Source: Balanoglossus misakiensis (lineage: Eukaryota > Animalia > Hemichordata). Taken from it: a DNA stretch of 64,000 bases. How positions within the stretch are numbered: the first letter of the stretch is position 1; every line of letters starts with the position of its first letter. Of this stretch, positions 48,331 through 61,849 are shown in pieces. Location: NCBI GenBank assembly GCA_040954595.2, contig CM082583.2, positions 12,934,987 through 12,998,986 of the forward strand, written 5' to 3'. Both the position numbers and the translations under genes were made by a program. The notes under the pieces were generated by a model. It searched no databases. It saw nothing but the letters and a program-made list of their open reading frames with translations, and was not told where the DNA came from.

Positions 48331-49327
48331 AATCCCAGGTTAGAGGGACTCGGGTTAGAATCAGCTGTAGAGATGGATGTAGTCTTCACCTTTGCCGTCC
48401 TCCCTCTTTTACTGCTGCCCTCAATGCAGAACACAAACAGAAGAACATGAACAGCAACACCCAGCAAAGGGCAAAGGTTAAGACATGGCACCTATCTCTA
48501 CAGCCAACTGTACAATGAGGCCAATCTAACCATGCTGGTTGGATGATTTTTTCTTTAAAGACATTCGAAATTTTGGTGTGTACAAGTTTCAAGAGTGAGA
48601 AGACAAAATGTAGTGAAAGCTTTAATTGTAGACTCCTGCAGACTTTTCACAAGACTTTTAGTTGTATATTTTGTACAGCAAAGATGTTACAACTTTCCTT
48701 GTGCTTTTGTTGAAATTTTTTCATTAAAGAAATTTTTTCCATGACTTTACTTTTACTTGTGTCTATTGATTGGTGTGTGTGTGTGCATGTGATGACAATA
48801 TGACCCTATGACTCTATAAAATATGCAATATTTGAGTTAGAACAAAACAAACAGTTAGCGAGACATTTAGTGCAAATTTGTGGGATAATCAAAATACAGC
48901 TTAAACCCCCCCCCCCCCCCAATTAACCATTACATTTTCTATACCACTACATTTGTGCTTATAGACTAAGACTTATCTGCCTTTGAAAAAGTGACTCTCA
49001 CAAATTTGTAAAGTTCACTTTGAGGCACAGCTCAGGCATAACCTCTTGCTCAGTAGATATTCACCAAGAACCTTCAAAATGACTTTGCCTGCAGAGTAAG
49101 TTCCTTGTTAAAATTGTCCACATCAGATTCCTGGAAATAAAAAAGGTAAAAGGAGGAAGAATCACTTATTTGAAGACGCAGGAAGCCAAGTGTGATGTTT
49201 TAAATACTTGTGACTGAAGGGCATCTGCCAACCAGGCCTGTCCAGCACAGTCCTAACCATGTTCTCTCTGATGAACTGACTGCCTGCATAGACTGTCTAT
49301 GCTGTCTGTACTGTGCAGCTAAAATGG

Positions 49328-52249
49328 TTACAGACTGCTCACCTGTGGACTGTGAAGCATTGCCACTTTGGTCGAGTTTTCACAGCTGTTATTTTTGTCA
49401 TCATCTGAGAGGTGATACTTCATCAGTTTCACATCGTCACTTTCTGACTTCGACAGATTTTCCGAATCCTCACCGTCTGGCGCAGTTCTAACTGCAGAAT
49501 CAGGGACACAATCTGGTGATCGGGAAAGTAAGGCATCATCTTTCACTTCCAAACTTCCAGGTTCTGTTTCTCTGGGTGGTAATTTAATATTTTCCACTTC
49601 TCTCCCTTTGTGCTCTGCTATGTGTACAGCAACATCTAGGGATGGCTGGACATGTATTGTATCCTCTGCCTCAAACTCTGAGCACAGAATGTCTTCTGAC
49701 CTAACGTGATCACCACATATGTCGTCCTGAGTCGGTTCCTCATGGACGATGACATTGTGATTGCCAATCTGCACATTGGCACCAGTAATGTAAAAGTGTT
49801 GAATGATGGGTGAGTGTTGATTCTCATAAGAGGTTCCTGGCCCTGCCCCTTGTTCCTTGTTTGGTGGCAGCAAATAACCAGTAGGAAAACTTGATTTGAA
49901 GTCTTCCTCAGCCAATGACTTTTCCTTTCTTTGGTTGGGATTATCTTCCTTGCCTTTGTCACTACCGGCACACGATTCACCTGACTGTTGATCTTTCTTT
50001 CCAACTTCTCTTTTTGTGGATGGAGAAACTGTAGCAAGAGATCTTCCAGTCTCCACGGTCTGAGAATCACCCAAGTCTCCACTTTTCTTGTGGCCACCAG
50101 ACTTTGATAAATCCCCTTGTTTGGACTCTGTTTTTCCTCCAACCATTCTCAGAAGCTCTTTCAGCATATCAGCAGCTTTTTCTCTTTCATCTGGGTCTGC
50201 AAGCAGTGTTCCAATGTCAGTCTCTGCTGTCATTCTCTCTTTACTCTGTGATTGTTCGTCTCTTTCAGGAGACGTGTCAAAGGTTATACCACGACCCAGT
50301 GCACCTTGACCTTTATCTTCAAACGATGCTGATGATTGACTTGTTGGTTTACCACTGTCGACAACCTGCGACAGATGTTCTAGCTTTCCTTTCTCTTGCT
50401 CAAGATCCTTCAGTTTTGCTGATTCTCTCGCTGCTTGTCCAGTACCTACGGGTGATTGAGTGACTAACTTGATGGCTTCTCTAAAAACAATGCCAGGCAG
50501 TGAAGTGTCAAGGTTTGGTGCTGTTGTTTTGCCAGAATCAGACAAAAGCTTTAACAGCCCTGCCAGCGCTTCAGCTGTCATGGCAACAGGTGCTGTTCCC
50601 ACTTGCTGTTGTTGGTCATCAGGCTGGGAACCACTATTAGTTTTGTCTTTTGCTGTTTCATCACCATCACTTAGAGAAGACACCTTCATCTTCAAATCCA
50701 ATTCATCAATGTCTGCTTCTGCTTCCGTCAACTTCTTAGTGATTTCATCCTCGGCCTGATTTTCAAGTTCTGTTTTTCCTTCATCTTTCTTGCCTGTTTC
50801 ATTATTCTTGCCCAACTTCACTTCTTCACTCTGACCCACTTGTTCGGAATCGCTTTTGCTGCCACTGTTCACACCTTCGACTTTTAAATCATCTACCTTT
50901 TCTGTGCTGCTGTCAATGTTTGTATCTTTGTCTTTGAAATCATCAACTTGTCCTGCATGGCTGTTGCTTCCACTGTTTGCTCCTTTGACTTTTAATTCAT
51001 TCACTTTTTCTGTGTTGCTGTTCCTGACACTCTTTGTACTTTTCTTGACATTTAACTCGACCACATTTTCTTTTGATGTACTGGTATCTCCTCCTGAAAG
51101 AGCTTTCTGTTTGTTCTTACGTTTCGTTGCACTTTGCAATGCAACCGGTTGATCTGATTGACTGTTTTGCTGCACTTCAGCTGTACCTTGTCCTGTCCTT
51201 TTGAAATCTTTCTGATTCGGTCGACTTGTTTGGAGTTGTTCTGCTGTTTTTATTTTGTGTCTTTTGGTATTTGATTTTGAGTTGGTTTCTTTCGTATGCT
51301 TCTTTTGAATTTCCACACCTGTGTCAGGAACTGGATTTGTCTCGGAACCATGACCTCCCACAGTTTCACTCTCCAGTAAAGATTTCAACTCTTTCAGTCT
51401 TTTCTTCTGTCTTTCAAGATTCTTTTTCATTTCAATTTTCTCCTGGAGCCGCAAAATCTCTTGTTCCATTTCCAATTCCTTCAGCAATTGTCTTTCTTCT
51501 TGTTGCTTCTTTCTCCATTTTCCTTCTCTGCTCATCCTAAGATGTGGCGTCACAACTTTCAACAACGTTGACCGAAAATAACTACTTTCACATCCTATGT
51601 GCGATATACTCTTCAGTGCCAGTGGAATTTCCCTGTCATCTAACCCATCAACAATCGGGATGACAAAGTCTTGTTTTTCAGGATCTCCTAGTGAATCAAT
51701 CACACTGGTGTCCACACACTTCTGATGGAAATTGTTTCTCACTAAATCTTTGGACAGCCACACCAAAACGAATGAGCAACGATCAAAGGCATCCTGCAAG
51801 TTTTTGAAGATGGACTTTCCCCCTGGGAATTCATCAGGGAGACAAACTTTCAAATTCTGCTGTTCCAGGTCATTCTTTAGCAGTATCACCTTGTCTAGGT
51901 CCCTGTCACTGTAGAGAATCAGAGCATCATAAAACTCAACATATGTGCTACTACTGCTGCTGCACATTTCGTCTGAAAAATCATGTTGCATGATGTTGAT
52001 GACTTGTTCCCCGATCTGAGTATCTTCAGCCTGTGTAGGAAACAAAATGCTTTTAGAATTAGGCAAACTCTTGACAGGGTTCGCTTTCTTCTTGCCTTTG
52101 CCTTTCTTTCTGACTATCCCAGAACTCTCCTTTTCCTTAGTGGTCAAACTGACTGTGGTCTTTCCGGCCGGTGCTGGGTTGCTAGGATACGATGATGAGA
52201 GCGGCTCTGCATCTTCTTGTTCTGATGTATTCCTTGCAAACTCAGCCAT
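49328..52249 (-). CDS. TRIF/TICAM-like adaptor A: TIR - coiled coil - disordered region - RHIM (973 aa, single ORF)
   Basis: TIR at ~51540-51937 (FYDALILYSDRD..PDEFPGGKSIFKNLQDAFDRCSFVLVWLSKDL..DFVIPIV..SSYF..REGKWRKKQQE) parallels TICAM1 as recalled (FYNFVILH..LQDAIDHSAFIILLLTSNF..CVIPF..RKAMWRKEQD). An E/K/L-rich coiled coil follows. RHIM PIIQHFYITGANVQIGNHNVIV is at ~49745-49810. Confidence 0.88.
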   Translation of the reverse strand: MAEFARNTSEQEDAEPLSSSYPSNPAPAGKTTVSLTTKEKESSGIVRKKGKGKKKANPVKSLPNSKSILFPTQAEDTQIGEQVINIMQHDFSDEMCSSSSSTYVEFYDALILYSDRDLDKVILLKNDLEQQNLKVCLPDEFPGGKSIFKNLQDAFDRCSFVLVWLSKDLVRNNFHQKCVDTSVIDSLGDPEKQDFVIPIVDGLDDREIPLALKSISHIGCESSYFRSTLLKVVTPHLRMSREGKWRKKQQEERQLLKELEMEQEILRLQEKIEMKKNLERQKKRLKELKSLLESETVGGHGSETNPVPDTGVEIQKKHTKETNSKSNTKRHKIKTAEQLQTSRPNQKDFKRTGQGTAEVQQNSQSDQPVALQSATKRKNKQKALSGGDTSTSKENVVELNVKKSTKSVRNSNTEKVNELKVKGANSGSNSHAGQVDDFKDKDTNIDSSTEKVDDLKVEGVNSGSKSDSEQVGQSEEVKLGKNNETGKKDEGKTELENQAEDEITKKLTEAEADIDELDLKMKVSSLSDGDETAKDKTNSGSQPDDQQQQVGTAPVAMTAEALAGLLKLLSDSGKTTAPNLDTSLPGIVFREAIKLVTQSPVGTGQAARESAKLKDLEQEKGKLEHLSQVVDSGKPTSQSSASFEDKGQGALGRGITFDTSPERDEQSQSKERMTAETDIGTLLADPDEREKAADMLKELLRMVGGKTESKQGDLSKSGGHKKSGDLGDSQTVETGRSLATVSPSTKREVGKKDQQSGESCAGSDKGKEDNPNQRKEKSLAEEDFKSSFPTGYLLPPNKEQGAGPGTSYENQHSPIIQHFYITGANVQIGNHNVIVHEEPTQDDICGDHVRSEDILCSEFEAEDTIHVQPSLDVAVHIAEHKGREVENIKLPPRETEPGSLEVKDDALLSRSPDCVPDSAVRTAPDGEDSENLSKSESDDVKLMKYHLSDDDKNNSCENSTKVAMLHSPQVSSL

Positions 52250-52553
52250 GATTTGACTTTTTGGGTGCCTCTTTTGTCGGTGTCAGCAACTGGACATTAA
52301 CCTTATTCAGACTTGCTGTTCCAACAGGAGGAACCTCCTTGGTTAGTAAAAAGACCATGGACGTCCATGGTAAGACTGTTATGAATTCGTCTGTTTTTCT
52401 CCAATCGTGATATTTCCTCACTAAAGTATCAACCTTTCCTTATCCTGTTCGTCTCTGGTCCAAAATGCAATGATATGATTTCTTTCTTGTTGCCAGTAAT
52501 ATGTTTTTGTCGGTGTCTGCGACGACAAACAGTCGAGTTATTTTTATCACAAA

Positions 52554-52798
52554 GGGGAATCCCCGGCGTTTACGTCACTTCCGAGTTTGTGTGATGACCT
52601 TAGGTCGTGCAGGTCAACTGTAAAATTGGTCAAAGCACAGTCCCTCTGTGGTCAAAGGTCCCACCGGGTCTGAATTCGCATTCTTTCTTGACATCTTATA
52701 GAACATGTGCGATTTTCGATGTTTTATTTGTCAGAGACAATGGGAAGAAAATTGTGTGTGAACCGGAAGCACATGGACTCCATGCCTGGGGGAATCCC
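52554..52798. promoter_or_regulatory. NF-kB-type sites plus an ETS-CRE composite upstream of TIR-RHIM gene A
   Basis: GGGGAATCCCC at 52554-52564 and GGGGGAATCCC at 52788-52798. TTACGTCACTTCCG (minus strand CGGAAGTGACGTAA) at 52570-52583 and CCGGAAG at 52763-52769. All lie 300-550 bp upstream of the ATG. Confidence 0.65.
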
Positions 52799-54093: not shown

Positions 54094-57000
54094 TCACATC
54101 TGAATCACTGGATGGTGCATTCTTTGGATGTTTTCTTGTTGCAATCTTTGCGCTTTTTCTCGTCTGTCACTGAAATGAAACACAGGGTAGGGATTTACCA
54201 GCCAATGGATTTGGTTAATTTGTGGATCTTTATATTCTTAAATACAAGTGAGAATTAGGAAACTTGCTTTGAACTGACCACTCACCTAAAGCTGGACTGC
54301 TCCTTGAAGAGCGTACAACTTGAGGGGAACGTCTTCCAGTTGAATCAGTCACCACTTCACCAGGAAGACGGTTGCTTCTCTGTTGTTTTTGTGCATCTTC
54401 TCTCTTACTGACCTGGAAAATATTGTTGAGAGAAAATATTTTTATTATGTTCTATGTTATTGTCTTTCCTTGATTTTCTAGTGTTTTACCCAAATTAAAG
54501 GGTATCAGCCAATACCCTGTAATTGTTCTGGGGAGACATTACAGCATTTTGTGGATAACTCTATATAAGCCTACCTGAACTTCTGTTTTCTTCTCCTTGA
54601 ATTTGTCTTTGGTTCCTGCACCTTTCTCCTCCCCAGGGTCAGTCTTTGTGTACAGCTTCATGACTTTAGTTTCCCCTTCTCCTGGTTCATATTCCACATC
54701 TCCACTTTCCAAATCTGGTGGCGCTTGATACAACTCATCGTGGTACGTCGCACCAGATCTAGTGCCAGCTCCACTTGGAGAACCGTCATGCTGAACAGAC
54801 CTGAGGCTGCGTGGACTCTTTGGTGACGTTTCTGGCAGACTCCCTTCAGGATTCACCCTTGAGGGAGTTGGGGAATTTGTCGAAGGGCCAGTCGCTTCAT
54901 TGCTGCCCGTTGCAGAAGGGGATGGAACAAACTCGATTTCAGGAACAGAATCATCCCCACCTTCATGCCGCTGATACTGCTGCTGCTGCTGGTGCAAACC
55001 TCTCACCACGTTCCCTTGTCCAATCTGCACCACGTTTGCCCCAGTAATGTAGTAGTGTTGAATGATGGGTTGGTTTTGACTCTCTGCAGACTGGCGGTTT
55101 TGATTGTGAACCAGAGCTTGTCCTCCCTTCAGTTCTTGTTGTTGGTTGCCATGTTCAAGATCATGTTCTTCCTTATTTATACATCTGCTAGTACCTTTTT
55201 TGCTGACCCCTTTCATCATCGGCTGTCTTGCCTGACCAGGCATTTCTTCGTTTACTTTTGATCTTTGCATTTTTTCCAACTGCTTCAATCTCTGCTCCTT
55301 CGCTTCCAACTCTTTTTTCAGCTGTAAAAGCCTCTCTTCTTCCTTCACGTCTCTCTTGGAATATTCCTGGCGTTCGTGTTTGCGGAACTGCCTCAGGGCT
55401 TTCTCTTCCTCCAGCGTTTTTCGCTTTGCATCAGCTGCATACTGTTTCCTCAGTTTGTCATCATCGCTGATTGGCTGCACCGCTGTCCCACCAATATTTT
55501 CAACGCCTCTTGCCAATCGCTGATCCTTCTTCCGTCTCTCTTCTTTCGCCAGGAGCTTCTCTCGTTTTGCTCTCTTCAACATCTCTTTTTCCGCGTCCCT
55601 CCTCTCCTGCTGCTCATACTCCCTGGCCGCTCGCTTGTCGGTGGCAACGGTCTTCTGCAGCTGCTTCTTGTAGTATCGGTTGCTAGGCCTCAGACAGGAC
55701 AGGCTCTTCAGCTCGCTGGGCATCTGCTTCTCTTCCACGCCGAAGGCGACCGGCACAACGTAGTCATGCTTCTCTGGGTCATCCAGCGACTCCACTAGAC
55801 TTGTGTGGATGTTCTTCTCACACCACTTGTCCTGCAAGAAATTCTCTGTCAGCACCACCACCACAAAGGAACTGTAGTTGAGAGCGTCAGCCACATTCCT
55901 GAAGACCGATTTCCCTCCAGTGAAGTCTTCTTGAAGGAGCACTTTGCGGTCCCAACCTTCCAACAGCTCAGTTAGATCGTTGACTTTATCCTTATCTAGC
56001 TTGCTGCCGAGTATGAAAGCATCGTAATATTCTACTGGTTTCGATAGGCTGTACAATTCCTTAGGAGACAATTCAACGTCTTCAAGACTGAGTGAATCCA
56101 TAGTAATACACTGCATGTCATCTACCAGACTGGGAACAGCATCTTTCTCATAATCAGTGTACGACGACGACTGCGATGGTGTTCCACTTTCTTGTCTGGT
56201 CTCAAGGGATGAAACAGTCTCTGGAGGGTTAGATTCTTTTTCTGTGTCTGTTTGCCTTTCAAGTGGAACAGCATCTTGTTCGTCGGATCCACCCATGCCG
56301 GAGAGATAACTGGACTGCTCTTGTAGGAATGTATGATCACTTTGGTTCTGTAAACTAGATATACTAGTAGCCACTACAATTCCTGAATCTGTGTCGTTGG
56401 GTTGCACTGGTACACCCAGGTCCTCAGATGTGCTTGGTATGTCTTCTTGCCTATCCGCATTCTGCACATCGCGGTTCAACTCGTCTGCTTCTTGGTCCGG
56501 GGTTTCTGAGAACACCGGCTGGTGCGTGTCCTGCATTGCCATGTCTTTCACTTTGGCATGTTGGTACTCATCATAGGAAGGGGCTGCATCAGTGACGACA
56601 TCCGACGACAAAAGACTTGGACTAGAAGATGAACTTGGAATCCTGCTTGAGTCATCGCACTCCGGGTTTTCTTCAAGCTCAATTATCGCTTCAATACTCT
56701 CCACCTCTAAGCCACTGGCCAGTCTTGCAGCCTTGCGAAAACATCTCTGCGCATTCTTTAACTCCTTTGCCACAACAGAATTTGAAATCAATTTTGTCCA
56801 GTTTTGTCTCCTGTTTATTAGAATTCCTAAAAAGAGCCAAGATAAAGCACCAACGCAGTTGTCTTCTCTCACGTCATGAAAAAGCTGAACAGACTCCTTG
56901 AAGTACTCCCGTTCTTTGTTTTCTGGAAACTCGAACTGAATGAGGTCTTTGACAATTATGAAGAGATAACAGCAATAGGCCAGTTCAAAGGTCCATTGCG

Positions 57001-57514
57001 AGAGATCCTGGAGTTGGGCTTTCTTTCCGATGCTAATTGCCTGTCGGTAACTCTCCAGGCCCAAGTCTACACTGAAGACACCTTGGCAAAGATAGCAACA
57101 AGCAACATTCAGTTCAAACACAGCACGTGCTTGACAACATAAGCACATAGCCTCCTTCGCTTTGTCAGAAGTCTCACCAACAACTTTCAAACAGTGCAAA
57201 ATGTCCTTCTGTTTATCTTGACACTGGTCTCCATAAATGTGAGCCAAGTTCAGCAAAGCATTTATGTTCTCTGAGTCAGACTTCAGAATGTCTTCAAAGA
57301 TTTCCACCGCTTCCTTGGTGCGTCCTTGAAGATAGGTCAGAACGCCTTTCAAGTGTGCCACAGCATTTCTCTTCAAAACCACAATCTTGGTTTCTGGTTC
57401 GGCTTCATTCTTCTGCAACCTGGAAAGTAATTCCTCACGTTGATCTTTGGTAAATCGGTGTATGGCTGCCAACTGTGGACATTCAAAATGCCCCAGGCCA
57501 GTAATAAACTCCAT
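54094..57514 (-). CDS. TRIF/TICAM-like adaptor B: TTC22/IFIT-like TPR - linker - TIR - coiled coil - RHIM
   Basis: Main exon 57514-54575 (980 codons, donor CAG|GTAGGC), with probable extra exons 54412-54286 and 54169-54094. N-terminus GHF..RNAVAHLKGVLTYLQG..EAVEIFEDILKSDSENINALLNLAHIY is TPR-like. TIR YYDAFILGS..EDFTGGKSVFRNVADALNYSSFVVVVLTENFLQDKWC..DYVVPV is at ~55620-56030. RHIM PIIQHYYITGANVVQIGQGNVV is at ~55004-55069. The last two exons are less certain. Confidence 0.88.
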
Positions 57515-57806: not shown

Positions 57807-57816
57807 GGGAAAACCC
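57807..57816. promoter_or_regulatory. kB-like site upstream of TIR-RHIM gene B
   Basis: GGGAAAACCC (GGGTTTTCCC on the gene strand), ~290 bp upstream of the ATG at 57514. Confidence 0.4.
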
Positions 57817-58748
57817 ACACACGTACACACAACACGCACATCCCACACACACCAGACATCAGACAAGTCCGGAGTCCACCGTCTCGTCCACGGAAATATG
57901 CTACTTGCAATTGCACTAGTATAGGAAGACCCAACTGCGCACTTCTTTCCTTTAACCAGATAACGGCAGTAATAAAACTGTGGATTCATTCACGGTTTTC
58001 GATGACGTTACCTCAGAACGGTGTACATGTATGACATGTGTGATTAATTTATGGACAACTTACTTCCTGGATCGCGGTCGGTGATACGTTGCGACAGTCT
58101 GTTGTCGCTTGACCATCCGAGCCGCAACGAAGACGCACTGAGACTTGCAAGGAAGTTAGGGGGATTTGTGAATAATATTTTAACTACATACCTATGTTGC
58201 TTCAGTGTCAAGAAAACGGAGGAGATCCATTACCAGCAGTTGAAATATGCACAACATCAAACACGCAAAACTCAGAAGTGGTCGTTCTCTCAATGTGGGC
58301 TTAAGAGGGCGTTTTATATGAACTTTGAACTTTGGCCTGAGTTGAACTCATTTCAACATACATGTACCCCAATAAAAATTAAAATAAATCATACAATAAA
58401 CCTGTTTGTCTATATATCATTTATTTTTCTTGAAGGGCATATTCCTAATAGGAAAAAGAAACGGATACTGAGATCAGTATATATATGTAGACACAAAGCC
58501 GCCACCTCTTTTGATATAAAATGATATAAAATTTGTGCCGTAAAGAATACTTTTCTCCTCCTGAGCACTGGTCCTGCATCGATTTTCGATGGTGACGTCA
58601 GAAGAGACGATTATTATGGGTTCGAATAGTTCGAATATTCTCTCATTTGATTGTACACATTGCAGCAGGGGTGATGGAACGTCGCAGAACTCTATTTCCA
58701 CCATGTAAAACATACGGACTTCTTTTCGTTTGAACAAAAACTACCAAA

Positions 58749-59384
58749 ATGTTCTCCGTAAAGTCACTAACGCCACCATCACCTCCCGAAAAAATGGAAG
58801 TAGACGATAATGACGACACGAGTGAACTTGAAGACGAAACGATGGAACATAGTCAGCTAGACGAGATCCCGGACCATGGAGATGGCGAAGATGTTACTAT
58901 GTAAGTTCTGGTCGCGCACTTTTCAGTCTGCCTGCAGGTGCCAGTGGCCGGACGCAGACTTCATGATTGGTTACAACAGGTGTCCCTTACCTAAGTTGGA
59001 CGTAAACCCCCACATTCTCTTATGCCTAAAGCAAAGATAAAAGGAAACCCAATCGTGTAAAGTTCATACATAAACGAAGCCTATGGTCACAGACCTTCGA
59101 AAAGTCAACTTTACCCTATTTGCAACATCATAACATCCTTTCAAAATTGTGTCTGCGCGATTTCTTCCGGCGACGTCTTTAATGACTCATATTCTTCGTA
59201 TAAATTTAACATAAAATTGTGTTTAACATCCAACAGAAACCTGACCAGGAAGTTTGGTCACCATCGTCTCATGACTGACGACTATGAATTCCCATTTGAC
59301 GGCACAAACGGCGAACACGTTGAAAATGATAGCGATTCGCAAGACGAGGAACAAGACCCTAATGTAAATTGTTGCAAGAAGTAA
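58749..59384 (+). CDS. Small acidic protein of unknown function (99 aa, 2 exons), not in the ORF track
   Basis: CAAAATG start. Exon 1 is 58749-58900 with a consensus GTAAGT donor (phase 2); exon 2 is 59237-59384 after CAACAG and continues in frame. Protein: MFSVKSLTPPSPPEKMEVDDNDDTSELEDETMEHSQLDEIPDHGDGEDVTINLTRKFGHHRLMTDDYEFPFDGTNGEHVENDSDSQDEEQDPNVNCCKK*. AATAAA at ~59588 and TGACGTCA at 58593-58600. Confidence 0.6.
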
Positions 59385-60151
59385 TGCACATCGAACAGTT
59401 CTGCAGTAAACACCCGACTTGATGAATATGTAACTTCAGAACAATACGTTTACGAGTGTCGTTGGAATCACCCCTATGGAATGATGTTGTCCGTATTCCT
59501 TCAAAGCAAGGATTAGGCCCTATATATGAGAACAATTAATGGACACTTCTCCATAGAAGTATATATTTCGTATGCAGCATAAAAATTAATAAAAAGTTAT
59601 TCTTCTAAACACTGAAATATCACTCCATAGCTGTAGACTTCTAGGTCCTACTACTACATTCACACTGTCGCTTGTTCGCCTATTGTGCAGAATGAAAAAC
59701 TTGTAAAGAAGCTGTTATGGTTTATGGGGTACTGGGGTCGAAGGAATTGGTCATCACTGGGAAATATGGTTATCTGAGGTTGGAGATGGAAACAATGCAA
59801 CCAGTTTACTGTGTTTGGCAGTATATTAAACTCTATTTTGTGCTATGATAACTGTTTTGCCAGCTTCCTCTACTCTTCCTGCTACTGCTTAGGATTAGGG
59901 CAGCGCCCCCATGCGGCAATGAACGAGGCTGATGGTTGTCAAGCTCGCACGAGGATATCCCTGCTGGTACGTTTATCATCTCGTTTGGAGCCTTGGCTCA
60001 CTCGAGAACGTTGTTTCCAGCAAACCAAGGCAAAACCTCGAGCTATACTGAAGTGCAGTTAGGTGTAGTGGTGAACAGCAAGTTGCTGTGAAAATTCCTA
60101 TCACACTCACAGTCCCAAACTGCCAAATTTGGACAAAGGTCACAGGTCAAG

Positions 60152-61849
60152 ATGTCTTCCAGTGGAAATTCTGTTGAGAGCAAGGTTAGCTCAAACATGA
60201 ACCAATCAACTGTTGGACTGTCTCAAAACTTTCCCAGGGTGCTTGTTGAATTGGCAGCCAAAGAATGTTTTGAGATACTGCTTGTAGAGTTGTACAGGTG
60301 CAAGCTTTGTGGTGTCTATTCCAGCTTGGTTAGAAACGATATGATGGAACATTTCAAAGCCACACACTGCAGTCATTGGGAACATGCTCTGGAGAAATGT
60401 GAAGCCCAAACAGACAATGTGACAGGCGCTGTTTTGGCTGTAAAACCCCAATGCAGCAGGGGTGAGATTTTGCTGCAACCAGCAAGTCTGGCAAAGAGGA
60501 TGGCGGCGACTGCACCCTCATTGAAATCATGCGAGGGATTGCAAAAGGTGGAGTGTGTCACGCCAGCTGACAGCACAGAAAAGAATGCAAATACTGACGC
60601 GGCTAAGTGTCTGCAACATGCAGAGATTAATGTGACGACATCAGCAGGGAGCACTGAAGAGGTTGATGGGGAACGTTCTGATGATGATGATGATGATATT
60701 GGTGCTGCTAATAGCACGAGTCTGCACTGCAGAGAAGTGAAGACTGGACAACAAGATGCAAATAAAATGGATGTGAGGGATGATTCAGCAGTCGACAAAG
60801 AACCTCAAGTGGTTTTGGAAAGCAAGACTGTTCCAGACCCGAAAGGTCTAACGCAGACTAAAGCAGAAACTCAAGCAAGAATGTCTACAGAGACAATTAA
60901 TTCAAACAAGATTTGTGTGCAGCCACCCATACTGTGGAAGTGTTCTGCCTGTGAAATATATTTTCAAACCCGTTATTACCTATCCTTGCACAAAAAGGCA
61001 TGCCACAAACCATGCAACAAGAAGTTCAAGTGTCATTTTTGCGAGAAGATGTTCTCGTGGCCGGGTCTTGTTAGGCACAAAAGAAAGAAAGTCTGTCAGA
61101 AGCAAAAGGTGAAGAAGACATACCCATGCTCAGTCTGCCAGAAAGTCTTCAATGACTCCTCTGGCTTGAAAGATCACATGCACACACACAGTGGTATAAA
61201 GAAGTTTTTGTGCCAGTTCTGTGGCAAAAGCTACAAACATCCCAGGTCTTTGAGGATGCACTTGGTACTCCACCGAGAAAACGCTGAAATCTTCAAGTGT
61301 AACGAGTGTGATTACACGAGCAAATTCAGAAATTGTGTTGAGAAACATAAACAGACGCTGCACAGAGCTGAAGGAGTGAAATTTTACAGTTGCGAAGTGT
61401 GCGACTTCCAGACACCGTACCTGTGTAGCATTACAAAGCATCGTGAGGCAACACACTCTGAGGACAGGAATTACATGTGTGAGATATGTGGCCGGGTTTA
61501 TAAATTAGAATCTTCGCTGAAAGAGCACATGGCAAATCATGACGGTAAAGAGTTTAGGTGTGAGCAGTGTTCATACGTTGGATTGACAGTTTCTAGACTG
61601 CGTGAGCACATGAAGATACACCTGCCTGTGGAGTCACGCAAGTACGCGTGTCCTCACTGTGATTGGCGGGGACTTACAAAGGATGTACTGCGTCGTCACA
61701 TGTTCAAGCACACTGGAGAGAAACCATTTCATTGCCAAGAATGTAACACTGGTTACATAAACCGCTACGGATTCAAGAGACATCTCCGAAAACGCCACCC
61801 AGAGCAGTATGTTTCATACACACACGCCAACCATTCAGCAAAAGAATGA
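60152..61849 (+). CDS. C2H2 zinc-finger protein (565 aa; one isolated N-terminal finger plus ~10 tandem fingers)
   Basis: Repeated CxxC-x12-Hx3-4H units, e.g. YPCSVCQKVFNDSSGLKDHMHTH, and an HTGEKPF linker. Uninterrupted ORF. Confidence 0.92.
   Translation: MSSSGNSVESKVSSNMNQSTVGLSQNFPRVLVELAAKECFEILLVELYRCKLCGVYSSLVRNDMMEHFKATHCSHWEHALEKCEAQTDNVTGAVLAVKPQCSRGEILLQPASLAKRMAATAPSLKSCEGLQKVECVTPADSTEKNANTDAAKCLQHAEINVTTSAGSTEEVDGERSDDDDDDIGAANSTSLHCREVKTGQQDANKMDVRDDSAVDKEPQVVLESKTVPDPKGLTQTKAETQARMSTETINSNKICVQPPILWKCSACEIYFQTRYYLSLHKKACHKPCNKKFKCHFCEKMFSWPGLVRHKRKKVCQKQKVKKTYPCSVCQKVFNDSSGLKDHMHTHSGIKKFLCQFCGKSYKHPRSLRMHLVLHRENAEIFKCNECDYTSKFRNCVEKHKQTLHRAEGVKFYSCEVCDFQTPYLCSITKHREATHSEDRNYMCEICGRVYKLESSLKEHMANHDGKEFRCEQCSYVGLTVSRLREHMKIHLPVESRKYACPHCDWRGLTKDVLRRHMFKHTGEKPFHCQECNTGYINRYGFKRHLRKRHPEQYVSYTHANHSAKE

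Follow-up and report, generated by a model that had tools for sequence, protein, structure and literature searches.

Does the acorn worm Balanoglossus misakiensis encode an immune adaptor laid out like vertebrate TRIF and, if so, what is the helical head that such a protein carries? The question is raised by a minus-strand gene in a stretch of 64,000 nucleotides (contig CM082583.2 of assembly GCA_040954595.2, positions 12,934,987 to 12,998,986; in the following the window, with positions counted from its first letter), for which a first-pass annotation had proposed a TTC22/IFIT-like TPR domain fused N-terminally to a TIR-RHIM protein. The TTC22/IFIT likeness is borne out by sequence profile and fold and the fusion to the TIR by a single reading frame, and we think it rather probable that the product is a non-enzymatic immune adaptor of the TICAM/TRIF family. 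Prenylation would tether it to a membrane, and the IFIT/TTC22-type head would keep it inactive until an upstream TIR partner triggers polymerisation of its TIR, upon which the RHIM-like motif would recruit a RIP-type kinase.

Head, linker, TIR, charged stretch and RHIM-like motif all lie in one uninterrupted open frame of 991 residues that runs on the minus strand from 57514 to 54539, followed by two predicted small exons:

54575-57514, minus strand: main coding exon (residues 1-980), delimited by a donor site and its phase; unspliced, the frame continues to a stop at 54539 (991 residues)
56660-57514, minus strand: N-terminal helical domain (residues 1-285), the front half of a TTC22/IFIT-type TPR protein
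56036-56659, minus strand: acidic, Ser/Thr-rich linker (residues 286-493), likely disordered, with the short conserved motifs DAAPSY, DSGIVV and, ahead of the TIR, LSPxE
55595-56035, minus strand: TICAM-type TIR domain (residues 494-640) with Asn at the catalytic-Glu position and a BB loop reading FTGG
55235-55594, minus strand: charged stretch (residues 641-760), likely a coiled coil, its composition read from sequence alone
55004-55066, minus strand: RHIM-like motif (residues 817-837; core VQIG, at residue 829), a pattern match
54286-54412, minus strand: predicted coding exon 2, with in-phase GT-AG sites and a tblastn match to the tail of Ptychodera flava isoform X1 (E 1.3e-5)
54105-54169, minus strand: predicted last coding exon, a basic stretch and then CTIQ-stop, a CaaX-like prenylation signal (tblastn E 0.69, weak alone)

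The peptides quoted in the first-pass annotation are real (residues 6-15 and 48-95 of this frame), and the TTC22 motifs it named are present in gar TTC22 (P0015). The span it gave for the head (56730-57514) does hold the helical domain, which extends slightly past that limit to about residue 285 (nucleotide 56660). Its TIR label agrees with Pfam (TIR_2, residues 503-609, E 5e-11, next to a weak TPR at residues 63-94), while the RHIM part of the label holds as a motif match and fails as a Pfam match.

The closest proteins come from other acorn worms, Ptychodera flava (P0005 and P0084; head identity 53-54%, E 7e-91) and Saccoglossus kowalevskii (P0006; head identity 37%, E 4e-47), and the corresponding orthologue records (XP_070542424/XP_070542427 and LOC102802839, respectively) are annotated only as uncharacterised. 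These predicted gene models start at the same point as the Balanoglossus protein and repeat its order of parts (head, TIR, charged stretch, RHIM-like motif). An assembly artefact was considered and rejected, since the same fusion occurs in the gene models of two other genomes. Identity to P0005 is 44% over 996 aligned columns and, by part, identity to P0084 is 53% for the head, 39% for the linker, 73% for the TIR and 56% around the RHIM-like motif. Among the 70 matches to the head in a search of 1.84 billion proteins, the head-to-RHIM layout is confined to Ptychodera and Saccoglossus and is absent from the other 68.

What, then, is the head? A profile built from 17 TTC22-type proteins, which were chosen from matches to this very head but exclude the three hemichordate orthologues, gives it 121 bits, with positions 39-278 of the 279 in the profile covered. 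Controls stay far lower (10 generic TPR matches at or below 35 bits, 200 shuffles at or below 4.4 and the reversed sequence at -1.3). On a TTC22-type profile the 70 matches divide into 20 at 78 bits or more, including gar and tunicate TTC22 and 11 proteins with both TPR and TIR domains, and a remainder at or below 38 bits. The high scores of P0005 and P0006 on profile A2 are by construction, and P0036, an aberrant short form, was omitted from the head tree, the TTC22-type profile and the column counts. In the ESM Atlas the top three clusters for the head are TTC22 (0.95) and IFIT clusters follow at 0.94; phmmer against the PDB gave 36 matches, mostly designed TPRs, with IFIT and TRIF not among them. 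By sequence, then, the resemblance to TTC22 exceeds what chance would give. Along gar TTC22 (568 residues) the homology stops near residue 290, short of a full TPR array (~570 residues), and in the tree the head falls outside the chordate TTC22 clade.

Structure comparison tells a similar story. With a model of the 285-residue head, IFIT1 and IFIT5 entries take ranks 1-12 of 968 aligned chains, and IFIT1 residues 15-267 (of about 460) align to model residues 4-285 at 11% identity; profile and fold of this region thus both yield the matches to TTC22 and IFIT that had been anticipated, IFIT1/5 being best by fold. The annotation had further suggested that the protein may retain a recognisable ancestral form of the TRIF N-terminal domain; the fold comparisons point both ways on this, and Pfam shows no match to the TRIF N-terminal domain. 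When residues 1-168 are modelled alone, 118 of 141 residues of the TRIF N-terminal domain (4C0M) align, model 11-166 to TRIF 7-132, at a root-mean-square deviation (rmsd) of 3.9. Among the 50 matches listed for this shorter model, only 12 IFIT1/5 entries and TRIF reach residue 160 or beyond at an rmsd below 5, and in a wide search only IFIT1 and the TRIF N-terminal domain 2M63 do so. That the head and the TRIF N-terminal domain share descent from an IFIT/TTC22-like protein, the head being the longer and less eroded of the two, seems to us close to an even call, on which we lean slightly to the negative side.

Could the head instead sense RNA? The first-pass annotation had raised a receptor-independent sensor, in which the head binds non-self RNA or a pathogen protein, leading to TIR oligomers and on to a RHIM fibril. 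The C-terminal half of an IFIT helps to form its RNA tunnel. IFIT1 and IFIT5 are reported to hold RNA in this positively charged tunnel (PMC8078519), and they are the best structural matches of the head, which is 53% conserved between species; besides, invertebrate TTC22-TPR+TIR proteins resemble sensor-effector fusions. Against these points, the fold match stops at IFIT1 residue 267, so that the acorn-worm head, which is fused to signalling parts, is without the C-terminal ~200 residues of IFIT1/IFIT5, and conserved basic residues have been replaced. At five columns (130, 147, 171, 184, 273) Lys or Arg occupies 82-94% of the 17 TTC22-type rows versus 1 of 15 cells in the three orthologues. 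A sixth basic column (108) reads Cys, His and Asp in the orthologues, and the Arg position ten residues past a conserved Trp holds a basic residue in 15 of 18 sequences as against 0 of 3 orthologues. By the end-points listed in the structural alignment, and assuming no gap, the conserved Arg column 273 would correspond roughly to IFIT1 residue 255. The last helix of the head is acidic in two of the three orthologues, and their heads have net charges of -6, +1 and -9. A protein ligand is still conceivable. A complete positively charged IFIT tunnel is thus absent from this protein. Because the second IFIT half is missing and the TTC22-type arginines are replaced, the RNA-sensor claim is weakened and finds no support in our analysis; we regard a receptor-independent sensor of any kind as quite improbable.

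Full-length relatives of the head differ in just these respects. TTC22 and the invertebrate TPR+TIR proteins (for example XP_070566814, XP_013418613 and XP_035668305) share the homologous front half of about 265 residues, in which Asn83, Asn85, Ala159 and Trp174 are conserved; unlike the acorn-worm adaptor, they retain the second half of the TPR region along with the basic residues, carry either no TIR or one that is TLR1/2-like and from a different clade, and show no RHIM-like motif. Eleven full-length proteins combine TTC22/IFIT-like TPRs with a C-terminal TLR-like TIR (P0012, P0013, P0020, P0022, P0026, P0032, P0037, P0042, P0047, P0051, P0068), named members being from hemichordates, amphioxus, echinoderms and a brachiopod. 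The family keeps the conserved arginines, and WCxxE is found in 3 of the 11. In such full-length TTC22-type relatives the basic columns may bind RNA, and as direct RNA-sensing TIR receptors the TPR+TIR proteins are more plausible than the adaptor described here.

As for the TIR domain, phmmer against solved structures places TICAM2 best (E 1.6e-11; TLR2 9e-8), and a profile of four TIR sequences widens this lead (TICAM2 E 1.3e-16 over positions 4-148 of 151; TLR2 1.2e-10), with TICAM2 ahead of TLR2, MyD88 and TIRAP. In the ESM Atlas, TICAM2 is the first cluster named for a specific protein (score 0.88, a lead only). In a tree the four TIRs form a clade of their own (100/99), apart from the 11 TIRs of the TTC22-TPR+TIR proteins. 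The possibility that the gene is a shortened member of that family was rejected, because the TIRs there form other branches and are TLR1/2-like in the two proteins tested. At the WCxxE position the three orthologues read WCEKN, WCEKH and WCEKH, and human TIR adaptors are reported to lack the catalytic Glu as well (PMC11745336); the domain is likely a non-enzymatic scaffold of TICAM type. Further downstream, the RHIM-like motif is conserved in P0002 (a tandem paralogue, see below), P0005, P0006 and P0084. P0002, P0005 and P0006 fit the pattern as given in PMC9440496 exactly, and the main protein deviates only by a Val at the last place.

These parts suggest how the adaptor may work. The TRIF N-terminal domain is reported as a likely inhibitor that binds its own TIR and keeps it off (PMC5397763), and by analogy the IFIT/TTC22-type head would autoinhibit the acorn-worm protein, while the predicted prenylated tail would tether it to the membrane. 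Nucleation might be provided by a TLR, hemichordates being reported to have TLR3-clade genes (PMC6946030), or by the head-less neighbour. TIR polymerisation and binding of a RIP-type kinase by the RHIM-like motif would then follow the examples of TRIF and TRAM, whose TIRs are reported to assemble into filaments (PMC11745336), and of amphioxus bbtTICAM, an invertebrate TICAM reported to reach NF-kB by way of its RHIM and RIP (PMC6043800); the acorn-worm protein differs from bbtTICAM in being non-chordate. Since no pLxIS motif is seen, the output would, again by analogy, be NF-kB or cell death rather than IRF3.

The membrane tether is predicted from splicing. A donor at 54574 and the small exons 54412-54286 and 54169-54105 would give a 1043-residue product that ends in a basic stretch and CTIQ, and P. 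flava isoform X1 ends in CDIQ, with isoform X2 stopping earlier, at the matching place. The Cys-x-Ile-Gln end common to the Balanoglossus prediction and P. flava terminates 17 of the 4941 stop-ended frames in the window; the Saccoglossus gene model shows no CaaX-like end. Under CaaX rules, Gln in the last place suggests farnesylation. The splice product is thus predicted to carry a CaaX-like prenylation end. The main protein begins Met-Glu-Phe and has at least 991 residues, which fits neither TRAM-type N-terminal myristoylation nor a TIR-only form; a further 5' coding exon is conceivable, but the orthologues share this start.

Several results weigh against reading the protein as a TRIF-like adaptor. 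For the head, the Z scores of the TRIF N-terminal domain (7.9 and 9.4) lie inside the generic-TPR range and far under that of IFIT1 (13.1), this domain is not among the 50 matches listed for the 285-residue model, Foldseek returned no match at E <= 0.001 for either head model, and Pfam TRIF-NTD did not match (14 and 20 families listed, E up to 10). The basic residues are not cleanly lost either: Arg130- and Lys108-type positions are partly retained, and a second alignment moves column 184 by three to 187, where Saccoglossus has Arg. The TICAM1 (TRIF) TIR matches over its full length but far more weakly than TICAM2 (E 1.4e-5), and the TIR tree comprises 15 TIRs with vertebrate and amphioxus TICAMs not among them, so that any TICAM orthology is putative. 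In the main protein the BB loop reads FTGG without the usual Pro (TRAM, reported to be without Pro at the loop apex, signals nonetheless; PMC11745336) and Pfam RHIM gives no match; no pLxIS-like motif was found in the four proteins checked. Finally, protein searches found no relative with both the head and a TICAM-type TIR outside hemichordates. This absence in other phyla is weak evidence because word-based searches returned P0005 alone or, where the 7995 best candidates were scored, P0005 and P0006.

A different reading is that the protein is a TICAM-type adaptor whose head came from half a TTC22-like gene in a fusion confined to hemichordates, shares no ancestry with the TRIF N-terminal domain and serves as a protein-binding or localisation module. 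An IFIT-like head would then have been acquired twice, at the same end and in the same family of TIR proteins. The TRIF N-terminal domain, too, overlays the head in register from the N-terminus, and long branches could hide orthologues from single-sequence searches. To our minds, such a fusion is unlikely.

The TICAM/TRIF-type adaptor that we favour has a close neighbour, 2 kb downstream, with a TIR in the same clade:

49328-52282, minus strand: tandem paralogue P0002 (984 residues) with a TICAM-type TIR, charged stretch and RHIM-like motif, no TPR head
52554-52564 and 52789-52798, no strand assigned: two perfect GGGATTCCCC NF-kB consensus sites upstream of the paralogue, putative; the only two copies of this 10-mer in the 64-kb window

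Its TIR is TRAM-like with a BB loop reading FPGG (Pro kept), Pfam RHIM scores below cut-off (E 0.092), and a likely small last exon near 49130 does not give it a CaaX end. P0002 could be an inducible partner or amplifier. One might argue conversely that the main protein is a negative regulator or decoy capping the TICAM-type filaments of its neighbour, given that the BB-loop Pro is missing in the former and kept in the latter and that the two perfect NF-kB sites belong to the neighbour, not to the main gene; its TIR (73%) and RHIM-like motif (56%) are nevertheless well conserved and TRAM, as said, signals without that Pro, so that we consider a decoy role very improbable indeed.

Other observations concern the main gene itself. 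The linker sequence DTDSGIVV (residues 374-382, about 56370-56395) has a P. flava counterpart, DCDSGIVV, and resembles a caspase site or a beta-TrCP degron; if cleavage occurred there, the signalling half would be freed from the head. Near the C-terminus, K[VL]M[KQ][LY]Y (residues 950-957, about 54645-54670) is common to the main protein, P0002, P0084 and P0006 within otherwise divergent tails and is a possible docking site for an unnamed partner. Upstream, an out-of-frame ATG 17 bases before the start (57531-57515) directly follows a likely splice acceptor and opens an overlapping frame of 52 codons, which could dampen translation of the main gene. A likely donor of the 5' untranslated region lies near 58063, and one Rel-like site (57807-57816) about 300 bases upstream of the start.

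A C2H2 zinc-finger gene lies on the plus strand, divergent from the TICAM-like one (60092-61849; likely small 5' exons near 58700-59400). On the other side, the Pfam scan of the first 48.5 kb covered 149 of the 186 frames of at least 66 residues. Elsewhere in the window Pfam recognises PWWP, Bcl-2, ubiquitin plus UBA, ASC channel, arrestin (two or three genes), BTB-BACK-PHR, UBA, a weak PARP and C2H2 fingers, and the genes across 1586-46595 include PWWP, Bcl-2, RAD23-like, ASC channel, tandem arrestin-domain, BTBD1/2-like and UBA-PARP-like ones. Several of these neighbours are reminiscent of the human 19p13/5q/15q regions that hold TICAM1/2, a putative synteny; human TICAM1 lies at 19p13.3 near ARRDC5, BTBD2 and PWWP3A.

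How does the acorn-worm protein compare with its vertebrate counterparts? With TRIF/TICAM1 (4C0M, 2M63) it shares the order of a helical IFIT-like head, a long disordered linker, a non-catalytic TICAM-type TIR and a C-terminal RHIM (RHIM-like here); it differs by a head of 285 rather than about 150 residues that is still TTC22-like in sequence, by the absence of pLxIS and of the BB-loop Pro, by the extra charged stretch after the TIR and by the predicted prenylated tail. TRAM/TICAM2 provides the best TIR match, including the long last helix, and shares with the acorn-worm protein a lipid anchor that is likely in the latter, yet it is short, has neither head nor RHIM and is reported to use an N-terminal myristoylation anchor (PMC11788365) where the acorn-worm protein has a predicted C-terminal CaaX. 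In the literature we found nothing on this layout or on TTC22 with a TIR domain, although these genes could be listed in the supplements of PMC9440496 and PMC8662601, in Tassia 2017 or in Gerdol 2017, a survey of TIR proteins in bivalves and other metazoans; co-mentions of TTC22 and IFIT look like gene-list mentions. A C-terminal lipid anchor on a TIR adaptor was not found described either, with no search aimed at this point. New with respect to the first-pass annotation are the predicted CaaX-like 3' exons and the head-less tandem paralogue.

It is conceivable, and on balance we remain doubtful, that TRIF began before the chordates as an IFIT/TTC22-type protein joined to a TICAM TIR. The acorn-worm protein would then be an intermediate, in which half an IFIT, minus its RNA-binding arginines, has turned into an autoinhibitory cap, and in which one adaptor combines the functions of TRIF (head, TIR, RHIM) with that of TRAM (lipid anchor), alternative splicing acting as the switch for the anchor. 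If true, the TRIF layout would move back to the deuterostome ancestor, three families that are usually treated apart (TTC22, IFIT and the TRIF N-terminal domain) would be linked and the origin of TRIF autoinhibition would become testable by head swaps.

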